Shown piece by piece: positions 27,389 to 48,374 of a stretch of DNA of 48,865 nucleotides. The notes below the pieces were generated by a model. It was not told the DNA's origin, searched no databases, and saw only the letters and a program-made list of their open reading frames with translations. The DNA comes from Nanoarchaeota archaeon SCGC AAA011-G17. GTDB lineage: Archaea > Nanobdellota > Nanobdellia > SCGC-AAA011-G17. The stretch is from positions 1 through 48,865 of the forward strand of contig AQRL01000033.1 in NCBI GenBank assembly GCA_000402515.1. Direction: 5' to 3'. Both the position numbers and the translations under genes were made by a program. The first letter of the stretch is position 1. Every line of letters begins with the position of its first letter.

Positions 27389-28414
27389 TTAGAAGAGGTT
27401 AGAAGTACAAATTTTTTTTATAACTTCTTTTCTTAATTTATAACTATCGGCCCATTTTGCATAAGCATCCCAACCTTGAAAAATTTCAAACAGCTTTTCT
27501 TTAGAAACTTCATTTTTCTTGTATCTATCAAAAACAAATAACATTTTTCTAATATTCCTTTTTCTTAATAGCCTATAATGATAAAAATTCCTAAATCCAA
27601 CAAAATCTATTCCTCTAGACAAAGAGCTTATCTTTGACTTTTCAGGATGAAGCTCAATTTTTAATTTCTCTTTCAGAAATTTGTCAATTTCAGATTTCCA
27701 GAATTCAAGCTGTGACTTTGACTTATGAAGAATTACAAAATCATCAACATATCTAATATAATATTTAGCCTTTAGTTTATGTTTTACAAAATAATCTAAT
27801 TCATTAAGGTAAACATTAGCAAAAAATTGTGAAGTTAGATTTCCCAAAGGCATCCCTGTTCCTTTATTTTTAGAATCAAAATTATTTAATATTAATTTGA
27901 TAAGAGAGATTACTTCTTTATCTTTTATTTTTCTTCTGATAATATTTATCAAAATTTCATGAGAAACAGTTTCAAAATAATGCCTAATATCTGCTTTAAG
28001 GCAGAATGCGTTTGATTTAAAATTATTTGTTACTTTTCTTTTAAAATAATCAAATCGTTTAATTGCAAATAAATTTCCTTTCCCTATTCTATTTGCACAT
28101 GAATCATAAATAAATCCCCTGTCAAAAATTGGTTCAATTATTCTTATTAAATCATGATGAACAATTCTATCCCTAAAATCAGACTTGCTTATCTTTCTAG
28201 TTTTAGGATCTCGCAAAATAAAAGTTTTTAGAGGCAATGGGTTGTAGGTATGATTCTTTAATTCTTCAGATAGTTTAAGCAAATTTACTAAAGTATCTTT
28301 TTCAAATTCAATTACATAATATTTACTTGTTTTGTGTTTTCTAGCTTTTCTCCAAGCTAAAAGTAAATTACTAAGATTATAAATTTCCTGATAAAGTTCA
28401 TTATTAGTTTCCAT
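27389..28414 (-). CDS. DGR reverse transcriptase (DGR-1)
   Basis: RT motifs include LGNLTSQ (the DGR-type [I/L]GxxxSQ) and YIRYVDDFVI (YxDD). TR lies 29 nt upstream. The protein is paralogous to 46221-47324. Confidence 0.9.
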   Translation of the reverse strand: METNNELYQEIYNLSNLLLAWRKARKHKTSKYYVIEFEKDTLVNLLKLSEELKNHTYNPLPLKTFILRDPKTRKISKSDFRDRIVHHDLIRIIEPIFDRGFIYDSCANRIGKGNLFAIKRFDYFKRKVTNNFKSNAFCLKADIRHYFETVSHEILINIIRRKIKDKEVISLIKLILNNFDSKNKGTGMPLGNLTSQFFANVYLNELDYFVKHKLKAKYYIRYVDDFVILHKSKSQLEFWKSEIDKFLKEKLKIELHPEKSKISSLSRGIDFVGFRNFYHYRLLRKRNIRKMLFVFDRYKKNEVSKEKLFEIFQGWDAYAKWADSYKLRKEVIKKICTSNLF

Positions 28415-28443: not shown

Positions 28444-28524
28444 TATTCCACGAACCCTGTCGTCGTAGTACAAGTCCCTATTGTTACCATCAAGATCAGA
28501 ACTGTTGTCAAGGCTCCTAAACCA
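28444..28524 (-). repeat. DGR-1 template repeat (TR1)
   Basis: 81 nt aligns without gaps to 28857-28937 at an offset of 413. There are 12 mismatches, all where TR has T on the + strand, i.e. A on the coding strand. Confidence 0.9.
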
Positions 28525-28724
28525 CAGGGAACTTATAGCCAGAATACCATCACAAAAGATTAACTCTTGCCACTGAAGCTTCACGAATGTTGCTTCTGTA
28601 TTTCATGACTTAAAATCAAATTAATGATGTACTAGTAAACTGGCATGTAGTCCAACTTATACTTCACTGATAGTATATCTATATAGTCAGGACATAACTT
28701 TAGAAATAATCTATTTTAAAATAA

Positions 28725-29453
28725 TTATTGTCTTAAACCATCTAGTAGAATCTTTTCAATTCCAGTTAGACCTTTTGTTTTTAGAACTTTTAAGATTTGT
28801 TTTGGAGTGTAAACTTCAGAATTTTTTTTCGTGCCTTCGACACTAACACTATCACGTACCCCACGAACCCTGACGACGCAGTACAAGACCCTACTGTTAC
28901 CACCAAGAACAGAACTGTAGACAAGGCACCTAAACCATATTTGTCTTGCAAAGGATTTTTCCTGCATATCTGCTAACAAAACAGCCATTTCTTTGATTCC
29001 TGCTTCTTCTCTTAAGAATTGCCCGTATTTTTCAGCATTTTCGCCAAAAGCATAAACAGTTATTTCATTATCTTTAAATCTGTTTGTAGGGATTTCTTTT
29101 GATTCTAGGTTGACTGAATCTGCTAATCCTTCCTCAATCTGCTCATCAGTTAAATAAAACTCTTGACCTTTTCTATGACAATCTGTAGCTTCTTTTGCAT
29201 TTGCCATTATTGGTGAATTCTTTGTTAAAAATCTACCTTTATTAAGAATATATAAAACCCCTTCTCTTGTCCAGTTTCCATTTCTAGAGACATAGGCATC
29301 TTTACCTTCCTGTATTCTTAATCTTGCATTTTCTTCTAAAGAAATAATTTTATAGCCATCTTTAACTAATACTTTTTTTCCTTCATCAAAGGGTGCCTCT
29401 GCATAAGCTGATTCTATTCCTCTTGGTTTTACATCAATACTAACTTTTACCAT
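28725..29453 (-). CDS. DGR-1 variable (target) protein, 242 aa, no signal peptide
   Basis: VR encodes aa 173-199 (WFRCLVYSSVLGGNSRVLYCVVRVRGV), against the TR-encoded WFRSLDNSSDLDGNNRDLYYDDRVRGI. A 43-aa conserved tail follows VR. Confidence 0.85.
   Translation of the reverse strand: MVKVSIDVKPRGIESAYAEAPFDEGKKVLVKDGYKIISLEENARLRIQEGKDAYVSRNGNWTREGVLYILNKGRFLTKNSPIMANAKEATDCHRKGQEFYLTDEQIEEGLADSVNLESKEIPTNRFKDNEITVYAFGENAEKYGQFLREEAGIKEMAVLLADMQEKSFARQIWFRCLVYSSVLGGNSRVLYCVVRVRGVRDSVSVEGTKKNSEVYTPKQILKVLKTKGLTGIEKILLDGLRQ
28857..28937 (-). repeat. DGR-1 variable repeat (VR1)
   Basis: See TR1. A-site-only divergence, in frame inside the target gene. Confidence 0.9.
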
Positions 29454-46220: not shown

Positions 46221-47324
46221 TTAAATTTTTGTTTCTCTTAATAATCTATTCACTTCTATTGATGAAATCTGATTAGAAAACATATACTCAAAATCTTTAG
46301 TGAACTGCTTTCTTAATTTATAAGTATCTGCATGCTTAGCATAAGCAATCCATCCTTCAAAACTTGCATAAATTTTATCATAATCAATCTTCCTTTCATT
46401 TAATTTGTATTTTGTTAATTTATTTCTCATCTTTTTTATATTTCTTTTATTTAATAACTTATGATAATAAAATACCCTGAAGCCCAATAAACTAATTCCT
46501 TTGCTTAATAAAATTATTTTGGATTTATCTGGATGCAATTCTAAGTTTATTGTTTTTAAAAAGGCACCAATCTTATTTTTATAATCAAATAATACCCCAT
46601 AATTATTATGAATTATCACAAAATCATCTACATATCTAATATAATATTTTGCCTTTAATTTATGTTTTACAAAATAGTCTAATTCATTAAGATAAACATT
46701 AGCAAAGAACTGGGAAGTTAGATTTCCCAATGGCATTCCTATCCCTTTATTTTTGGAATTAAAATTATCTAGTATTAATTTAATAAGCAATATTATTTTT
46801 TCATCTTTTATTTTTCTTTTAATAATCTCAATTAAAACTTTGTGAAAAACAGTATCAAAATAGTGCTTAATATCTGCCTTTAAAATATAAGCTTCCCTTG
46901 TATTATTCTTAGTAACTTTCCTTTTAAAATAATCAAATCTTTCCAATGCCTTAAATGCCCCCTTAAATTTTCTATTTGCATACGAATCAAAGATAAATAT
47001 TTTTTCAAATATTGGTTCAATAATATTACACAAAACATGGTGAATAATTCTGTCTTTAAAATCAGACTTGCTTATTTTTCTGGTCTTTGGATCCCTAAGG
47101 ATGAAGGTTTCCAAAGGTTTTGGCCTATAAGAATGAAACATAATTTCTGACCTTAATTGAAGCAGATTTTCCTTAAGATTCTTCTCAAACTCAACAACAT
47201 AATCTTTTTTTGTCTTATTTTTTCTTGCTTTTTTATATGCTAGTTTAATATTTTCATAACTACATAGAGAAATCCATAAATTAGTGTAAGTATGCATTTG
47301 ATTATTAAATGCCTTGGCAAACAC
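46221..47324 (-). CDS. DGR reverse transcriptase (DGR-2)
   Basis: GMPLGNLTSQFFANVYLNELDYFVKHKLKAKYYIRYVDDFVI is identical to the DGR-1 RT over this stretch. By alignment to RT-1 the likely true start is the ATG at 47297, which leaves a 32-nt TR-RT spacer. Confidence 0.9.
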   Translation of the reverse strand: MFAKAFNNQMHTYTNLWISLCSYENIKLAYKKARKNKTKKDYVVEFEKNLKENLLQLRSEIMFHSYRPKPLETFILRDPKTRKISKSDFKDRIIHHVLCNIIEPIFEKIFIFDSYANRKFKGAFKALERFDYFKRKVTKNNTREAYILKADIKHYFDTVFHKVLIEIIKRKIKDEKIILLIKLILDNFNSKNKGIGMPLGNLTSQFFANVYLNELDYFVKHKLKAKYYIRYVDDFVIIHNNYGVLFDYKNKIGAFLKTINLELHPDKSKIILLSKGISLLGFRVFYYHKLLNKRNIKKMRNKLTKYKLNERKIDYDKIYASFEGWIAYAKHADTYKLRKQFTKDFEYMFSNQISSIEVNRLLRETKI

Positions 47325-47329
47325 AGGAT

Positions 47330-47416
47330 TATTCCAACAAAACGAGCATTGTTGTTGATGTTGTTGTTACCATTAAGACCATTGTTGCAGTTGTCGCCAA
47401 CGAACAGCAAACGCCC
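47330..47416 (-). repeat. DGR-2 template repeat (TR2)
   Basis: 87 nt aligns without gaps to 47748-47834 at an offset of 418. There are 10 mismatches, all at TR T on the + strand (coding-strand A). TR encodes the AAY-rich GRLLFVGDNCNNGLNGNNNINNNARFVGI. Confidence 0.92.
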
Positions 47417-47606
47417 GCTATATAGCCTGCTTATCCTTAATTGCAATGCTGTTTCATCTGTTCAATATTTACTAAGTGTCACAGCTGTATTTTATAACCA
47501 TTAAATGGCCATGATAAACAGGCGTGTAGCCCTGAGATATCTAACTATCACAAATCAAGTTAAATAATACCAAGACAAAGTAAAAAAGAGAAAGAAGTTT
47601 AAAAAT

Positions 47607-48374
47607 TTATTTGTATAATGCTTTTATTTTATTTTCATATTCTTTTCTAGTTGCTTTTGGAACAAAATTTTTTGAAACCTTCAAAATTTGCTCTATAGTC
47701 GGTGCTGAAATTTTTTGCGCAGTGCCTTCGGCACTAGCACTACCACGTACCCCAACAAAACGAGCATAGTTGCCGATGCCGTAGTTACCAATAAGACCAT
47801 TGTTGCAGTAGTCGCCAACGAACAGCAAACGCCCTAATGGCTCATCTTTTAAATCATCACAATGCCAGATTCCTATATTATTTCCATAAACCTGTTTAAA
47901 TTTTTCAAGATATCTTTGGGCTCTTTCCTCTCCGCCAATAAAAGGGATAGTTTGGGGATGCTCCAATGCTCTTTCAACTGGAATTACTCCTGAACTTGAA
48001 CTTTTAAGCTTATCATAATCAATAACAAAAACATTCTTATTATCCCCTAAATCCAATAATCTCTGAAATTCATCTACCGGCATAACTCCTGCACCGTTTA
48101 TTCTCTCTGCATTTCTTATATTTTCAGGATTAGAAAGATAATTATCAACATGGACATATACAACTACTGGGTTTCCCTGCTTGGTTCTTCCTGTTGCCCT
48201 TATGCTTGGTGCAGTAAGCCAGTTGCTTAATAAGCTTGAACCTTTAGTTGCTAAAATTTTTGCGTCTATCAGTTCAGGCATGAATAAAGCATGACCGTAT
48301 TTCTGACAGCTTTCTAAGGCTGTAGCCATATCACTATTATAAAACTCTTTTGCTTGCTTTCTGTTTATTTCCAT
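47607..48374 (-). CDS. DGR-2 variable (target) protein, 255 aa, no signal peptide
   Basis: VR encodes aa 181-209 (GRLLFVGDYCNNGLIGNYGIGNYARFVGV). The 46-aa tail is conserved with target 1 (...EGT...P..ILKV.K...). Confidence 0.85.
   Translation of the reverse strand: MEINRKQAKEFYNSDMATALESCQKYGHALFMPELIDAKILATKGSSLLSNWLTAPSIRATGRTKQGNPVVVYVHVDNYLSNPENIRNAERINGAGVMPVDEFQRLLDLGDNKNVFVIDYDKLKSSSSGVIPVERALEHPQTIPFIGGEERAQRYLEKFKQVYGNNIGIWHCDDLKDEPLGRLLFVGDYCNNGLIGNYGIGNYARFVGVRGSASAEGTAQKISAPTIEQILKVSKNFVPKATRKEYENKIKALYK
47748..47834 (-). repeat. DGR-2 variable repeat (VR2)
   Basis: See TR2. Confidence 0.92.

Follow-up and report, generated by a model that had tools for sequence, protein, structure and literature searches.

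What tells the DNA that a DGR rewrites (VR) from the master copy that it leaves alone (TR)? The locus analyzed here raises this question because a short GAA-loop hairpin lies just downstream of both of its VRs. The window, meaning the whole stretch of 48,865 nucleotides, is contig C33 of a 1.02 Mb genome with 32% GC and four RT genes, and it contains two complete DGRs, both encoded on the minus strand and arranged as target gene, VR, spacer, TR and RT. The original prediction, made from the letters of the window, took the hairpin to be a counterpart of the structure said to be required for target recognition in the Bordetella phage DGR. Here we follow the hairpin from the window through the genome and into related archaea, weigh the other readings of its conservation, and compare it with systems in which such structures are known. 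Contigs of this genome (G000) are labeled C##, and DGR or RT loci L###.

Two complete DGRs with a hairpin behind each VR

The locus is a bona fide DGR locus, as it holds two RVT_1 RT genes, its TRs and VRs mismatch at TR adenines only, and the VR2 target is AvpA (chain 5IOO_A), the protein listed for the DUSEL4 Nanoarchaeota as 'OTU1, Contig 3 DGR2'. Homology between TR and VR stops at GTGG, after which GGT follows in the VRs and AAT in the TRs. Both hairpins begin 13 nt past the end of TGGGGT, so that the equal spacing originally proposed for the two VRs holds, whereas the proposed distance of 12 nt hinges on the choice of VR edge. The 13-nt spacers (ACGTGGTAGTGCT versus ACGTGATAGTGTT) differ at two positions, the number given before.

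On the minus strand the VR2 hairpin consists of six Watson-Crick pairs at the position and with the stem length predicted for it, and it lies inside the coding sequence, where it encodes SAEGT; its VR1 equivalent encodes SVEGT, also within the ORF. The VR1 stem was likewise read correctly as GTGTC-GAA-GGCAC, with five pairs including one T.G, and its span narrows to 28843-28831 since the flanking A at 28844 and G at 28830 do not pair. The flanks of TR1 and TR2 contain no such hairpin, in agreement with the original prediction.

Folding of both sites, which had been proposed as a check, gave DNA energies of -7.7 kcal/mol for VR2 (z = -1.7) and -1.8 kcal/mol for VR1 (z = -0.07), calculated with nearest-neighbor parameters that may or may not include a special term for a c(GNA)g triloop; the corresponding RNA z-scores were -1.3 and -0.1. 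None of these energies is significant for either hairpin. Single-sequence thermodynamics, with z-scores from -0.07 to -1.7 for stems this short, was accordingly set aside as evidence.

The C-to-T change that separates the VR1 stem from that of VR2 had been described as preserving the pairing. We considered it as a compensatory change and rejected this, as it is a one-sided transition after which the sense strand has a T.G pair and its complement an A.C mismatch, in a sequence whose predicted fold is no better than its shuffles. The VRs of L010 and L015, whose flanks resemble that of VR1, have perfect GGTGCC/GGCACC stems. The most fitting reading of the change is that one transition has weakened the stem; it offers no evidence of covariation, and the genuine covariation signal comes from other DGRs.

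Table 1. Positions of the DGR components, hairpins and adjoining motifs within the window
Feature	Positions	Strand	Remark
VR2 target-site hairpin AGTGCC-GAA-GGCACT	47721..47735	-	6-bp stem, GAA triloop, C-G closing pair
GAA loop of VR2 hairpin	47729-47727	-	
VR1 target-site hairpin GTGTC-GAA-GGCAC	28831..28843	-	5-bp stem, one T.G wobble
GAA loop of VR1 hairpin	28838-28836	-	
IMH core TGGGGT, 3' end of VR2	47749..47754	-	from sequence and Paul et al. 2015
IMH core TGGGGT, 3' end of VR1	28858..28863	-	
IMH* core TGGAAT, 3' end of TR2	47331..47336	-	no hairpin after it
IMH* core TGGAAT, 3' end of TR1	28445..28450	-	no hairpin after it
VR2	47752..47834	-	8 mismatches with TR2, 8/8 at TR adenines
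TR2	47334..47416	-	
VR1	28861..28937	-	10 mismatches with TR1, 10/10 at TR adenines
TR1	28448..28524	-	
Target gene 2	47607..48374	-	AvpA (PDB 5IOO), 255/255 residues identical
Target gene 1	28725..29453	-	242 aa, no Pfam family
DGR2 reverse transcriptase	46221..47324	-	RVT_1
DGR1 reverse transcriptase	27389..28414	-	RVT_1
GCGC-AAAAAA-TTT box, immediately 3' of VR2 hairpin	47708..47720	-	conserved companion motif
G-AAAAAAAA-T box, immediately 3' of VR1 hairpin	28821..28830	-	
RT-16 RNA, adjoining the 5' end of TR2	47417..47575	-	Rfam RF03019, 87 bits
RT-16 RNA, just 5' of TR1	28530..28692	-	Rfam RF03019, 71.5 bits

Earlier description of the locus

The hairpin has already been published for this same nanoarchaeal locus, by Paul et al. 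(2015, Nat Commun 6:6585, PMC4372165) and Handa et al. (2016, PMC5006420), who gave it the same target-hairpin reading. Paul et al. reported that the IMH sites of DUSEL4 include TGGGGT and its IMH* sites TGGAAT, that its hairpins all have GRA trinucleotide loops and each lie within their own target gene, and that the genome holds four DGR cassettes and two RT-less partial DGRs. Handa et al. placed the AvpA hairpin at the codons of five disordered residues within a 46-residue C-terminal extension. The IMH and IMH* motifs, the GRA-type loop, the position within the gene, and the organism and locus all match, identifying the published hairpin and ours as one object, and the published cassettes and RT-less partial DGRs agree with the four RT genes found here. 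To these papers our analysis adds statistics over about 60 further DPANN VRs, a count of covariation, an analysis of reading frame, and the rule that the closing pair is C-G. The loop rule also widens, from GRA in DUSEL4 to GNA in the clade.

Occurrence of the hairpin in the genome

The 1.02 Mb genome has five copies of the 13-mer GTG[CT]CGAAGGCAC, and 5/5 lie a few nucleotides after a VR-type GGGGT end: the two in the window and those at C28:106, C28:877 and C38:77457. We then scanned both strands for C-GNA-G hairpins with a stem of at least 5 bp, three or more G/C on the 5' side of the stem and no more than one G.T pair, which gave 13 matches genome-wide, eight of them placed behind a GGGT end and followed by an A-run. 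Such an occurrence is far beyond chance. Among the eight are further VRs at C6:3451 and C29:8393, whose templates were found through adenine-specific mismatches. DGR3, upstream of the RT at C28:23144, uses another stem around the same loop, TCAGC-GAA-GCTGA; this hairpin contains the literal GCGAAGC, reads CAG CGA AGC TGA in a frame different from that of the window hairpins, and has a stop codon within its 3' arm.

Nor do the four RT cassettes account for all DGR parts of the genome. On contig C6, a TR with an RT-16 leader (C6:3817-3930) has no RT gene but has a matching VR on the same contig (C6:3354-3473), and a VR on the minus strand of C29 (C29:8371-8552) partly matches the same TR. Four VRs match TR4, two on C28 (including C28:13-132), one at C38:77365-77469 and one on the minus strand at C37:1842-1925, the last of which has no hairpin and retains an A-run box of the kind described below. 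These VR copies on C6, C29 and C37 exceed the two partial DGRs of Paul et al.

Conservation and covariation among related DGRs

A search with the four aligned RTs provided 80 RT loci from Woesearchaeota, Pacearchaeota, Nanoarchaeota and other DPANN, in which 62 TR/VR pairs were located through adenine-biased mismatches; the TGGGGT/TGGAAT pairing of IMH and IMH* holds in most of the 62. A perfect stem of at least 5 bp with a GNA triloop was present in 39/64 VR flanks and 0/57 TR flanks, compared with a mean of 0.4 and a maximum of 3 when the VR flanks were dinucleotide-shuffled 200 times, the loci being related such that frequency and covariation counts overstate their independence. About one third of the VR flanks in the clade have no perfect hairpin. 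The hairpin mostly begins 6-15 nt from the IMH.

The GNA triloops are GAA (32), GCA (5), GTA (4) and GGA (3), the complementary TNC never occurs as a loop, and the closing pair is C-G in 44/44 GNA hairpins even though the search imposed no closing pair. Over 58 hairpins the stems measure 4 bp (5 cases), 5 bp (24), 6 bp (19), 7 bp (9) or 8 bp (1), and 5/58 carry tetraloops. Stem sequences include GTGCC, GTGGC, GCGCC, CTGGC, GTTGC, TCAGC, GACCC and CCGCC. Homologues of AvpA from other genomes retain a hairpin of different sequence, with GAACC-GTA-GGTTC in L094 and a GAGCGC stem with a 5-nt loop in L095. The search for target homologues covered 40 relatives, all from other families of the same order, a set that does not include the OTU2 orthologue of the locus.

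Conservation and covariation of the stem across related target genes had been proposed as a check. For this purpose 58 VR flanks were aligned on the first C-GNA-G after the IMH, with 8 nt on each side, and because the anchor was the motif alone the sequences were not picked by pairing. The genome-wide motif scan and this motif-anchored alignment took the place of a covariance model over IMH, hairpin and A-box, since MAFFT misregistered the C6 and C29 copies and a model of the hairpin alone would have too few bits. Each of the four pairs beside the anchored closing pair is present in about 80-88% of the sequences and is represented by two to five pair types. Double-sided changes occur in 98 cells, against 46 +/- 6 after shuffling (0/500 shuffles reach 98), and the covariation score is 0.498, against 0.187 for shuffled alignments and at most 0.198 when the 3' partner is slid. 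The stems covary, and the hairpin is a selected nucleic-acid structure, neither a product of chance nor of protein constraint. The outcomes named in advance as damaging to the prediction, homologous targets without stem complementarity or conservation explained by amino-acid constraint, are not what these comparisons returned.

Alternative readings of the conserved hairpin

The alternative that survives best is that the hairpin works as RNA, either as a stem-loop in the target mRNA that governs stability or translation or as an element recognized by the RT ribonucleoprotein. Covariation alone cannot tell a DNA structure from an RNA structure and fits RNA equally, the hairpin lies within a transcribed ORF, and the G.U pair of VR1 would be better tolerated in RNA, where its 5-bp stem forms at -4.5 kcal/mol. 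We nevertheless consider an RNA function unlikely. G.U and U.G pairs are rare, at 1 to 3 of 58 per core stem position, the invariant c(GNA)g is a hallmark of extra-stable triloops in DNA rather than in RNA, and we know of no function for target-mRNA structure in DGRs. The corresponding BPP-1 structure was seen with T7 endonuclease I in supercoiled plasmid DNA, and homing depends on that structure (PMC3240598).

It is very improbable that the hairpin serves as a transcription terminator or attenuator of the target gene. Such a role could be suggested by the GC-rich stem and by its placement towards the 3' end of many target genes, with a stop codon within about 20 nt in some loci, but archaeal termination relies on oligo-T tracts and not on hairpins, and here the sense strand continues with an A-run rather than a T-run. 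The window hairpins also precede the stop codon by 120 nt (VR2 target) and about 110 nt (VR1 target), and Wu et al. saw terminator motifs after the IMH in only a minority of DGRs.

The weakest alternative, that amino-acid constraint on an A-E-G-T motif is what is conserved and the palindrome a by-product, is effectively refuted by the frame analysis on the sequences compared, for although both window hairpins share a frame and encode (A/V)EGT, and although phase 0 is the commonest, 3-nt loops occur in all three codon phases (26, 6 and 19 in phases 0, 1 and 2, with triloop codons reading AEG, PKA or QRS) and in some cases past the stop codon, both arms of the stems change with pairing kept, the C-terminal extension of AvpA is disordered in the crystal (PMC5006420), and the target 1 homologues L086 (genome G006) and L087 (genome G002), with no RT within about 1.5 kb, have no hairpin. 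These two homologues end in a TR-like GTGGAAT, and the donor-type form of the sequence is thus also present in ordinary paralogues.

Proposed role in homing

We favor a model in which each hairpin is a cis-acting recipient mark of its DGR, a DNA structure that raises the efficiency of homing, and we assign this reading a probability of roughly 0.8. It builds on features observed here, namely the position of the hairpin, its absence from TRs, its covariation, the asymmetry between strands, and its independence of reading frame; formation of the structure in DNA and a promoting effect on homing are suggested by the experiments on BPP-1. The invariance of c(GNA)g and the strict sense polarity speak for a hairpin formed in DNA by the sense strand, to which the cDNA is complementary.

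In this model, opening of the duplex through replication or negative supercoiling would allow the sense strand to fold into a very stable c(GNA)g mini-hairpin, or a cruciform to extrude. The hairpin could then keep the sense strand of the neighboring IMH and VR single-stranded, and the adenine-mutagenized antisense cDNA copied from TR RNA would anneal to this open strand and replace the VR. The structure would in this way raise homing efficiency and, together with the GG/AA difference between IMH and IMH*, would separate recipient from donor.

The description of the structure as required for target recognition was too strong. In a reconstituted BPP-1 system, deletion of the stem-loop severely lowers homing, yet the stem-loop is not strictly needed (2026, PMC12875486), and in the present clade some VRs without a hairpin carry adenine-type mismatches. 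The hairpin is not indispensable, because at least three hairpin-less VRs (L039 around 2650, L083 and C37) still show adenine-type divergence.

Comparison with known hairpins

As a counterpart of the Bordetella phage hairpin, the archaeal structure is supported on the points that sequence can address: it lies 3' of the VR and IMH (at 4-34 bp in BPP-1-type systems, at 13 nt here) and is absent after the TR, its stem is GC-rich and keeps its pairing while the sequence varies, and its loop has the form G...A on the sense strand with a C-G closing pair. This agrees with the finding that in BPP-1 the stem's structure is needed and its sequence is not, whereas the sequence of the loop is needed (Guo et al. 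2011, PMC3240598). The model proposed in PMC12875486 is that the stem-loop keeps the lagging-strand template, with which the cDNA pairs, open for longer.

The two hairpins also differ. Stems of 5-7 bp here contrast with 8 bp in BPP-1 and fall short of the 7-10 bp that define the phage set, and the 3-nt GNA loop departs from the 4-nt GRNA loop of BPP-1 while keeping its sense polarity. The BPP-1 hairpin follows the stop codon, whereas those described here usually lie inside the ORF; the host is archaeal, and unlike in BPP-1 there is no avd between target and RT in this window. Experiments established the homing function in BPP-1, and the archaeal hairpin is known here from sequence.

The DNA mini-hairpins d(GCGNAGC) are extraordinarily stable (PMC13037366), with a stability that depends on the closing pair (PMC3201870). 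The mini-hairpins d(GCGNAGC)/d(GCGNNAGC) share with the archaeal structures the GNA triloop and the 5'-C...G-3' closure, the latter in 44/44 cases here; they are synthetic or model oligonucleotides, whereas the archaeal hairpins are predicted, at the folding energies given above for the window. Targets of group IIC introns, stem-loops of terminators that are recognized as single-stranded DNA and are cited as an analogy by Guo et al. (2011), offer a further parallel in that a retroelement likewise uses a DNA stem-loop in which structure counts over sequence. Those introns insert downstream of the stem-loop and the sequence of its loop is of minor importance, whereas DGRs overwrite the DNA upstream and the loop is constrained.

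A run of adenines following the hairpin

A second element accompanies the hairpin in this clade, a run of four to eight A that mostly has (C)GC before it and T after it. The A-run begins at most 8 nt from the hairpin in 32/44 cases, against a background of 14%, and in 41/60 VRs the box starts about 24-38 nt past the GGGT end of the IMH. It is found in all three codon phases and is non-coding in ten cases. The box is kept in the hairpin-less VRs of C37, L039 around 2650, L083, L096 and L097, where its distance from the IMH is shorter by about one hairpin length. We found no description of it in the DGR literature searched, a scope that stops short of the CPR/DPANN survey of Paul et al. 2017 (PMC5436926). 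A tentative interpretation, which we hold to be somewhat less probable than its negation, is that the recipient signal of DPANN DGRs is bipartite, composed of the c(GNA)g mini-hairpin and a (C)GC-A(4-8)-T box. On that view target recognition or DNA opening would depend more fundamentally on the A-box, with the hairpin serving to enhance efficiency.

Structures on the template side

The spacer between target gene and TR corresponds to the Rfam RT-16 motif in both DGRs of the window, and the 3' end of RT-16 adjoins the TR there and in 20/20 other DPANN DGR loci, including the RT-less TR on C6. Weinberg et al. (2017) defined the RT motifs and left their roles unassigned except for RT-10; from its placement, RT-16 appears to form the 5' domain of the template RNA of these DGRs.

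Six TRs (DGR4 of this genome, C6, L019, L059, L080 and L084) contain an insert of 18-38 nt with the form CUCG-AAA-stem-loop-CGAG that is missing from their VRs; located examples are L004:1371-1475 (C28 about 1646-1750) and L105 (C6 3817-3930). The stem-loop of the insert varies and covaries in sequence, and the insert sits between the adenine-mutagenized part of the TR and an IMH*-like segment of 15-18 nt. The segment past the insert has non-adenine mismatches, and because of this it may go uncopied. The insert may mark the start of cDNA synthesis, and it may represent a priming or RT-binding structure or a hairpin skipped by the RT. A bulge-helix-bulge intron was considered by hand and rejected, as the central 4-bp helix and the second bulge misfit the junctions implied by the VRs. 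Many TRs (e.g. L068, L070, L018 and L013) are in addition followed by a small AU-rich hairpin of the type CUAG-N3-4-CUAG(G), directly after GGAAT(A/G)GC, and this hairpin may be the equivalent of the spacer structure in the BPP-1 DGR RNA.

Conclusions

In summary, the hairpin behind the VRs of this locus confirms published DGR biology and is not a discovery. In this genome it marks at least eight VR ends, including remote ones that have no RT. Together with the difference between TGGGGT and TGGAAT, it sets the DNA that is rewritten apart from the master copy, and it thereby provides a practical marker of homing-competent targets.
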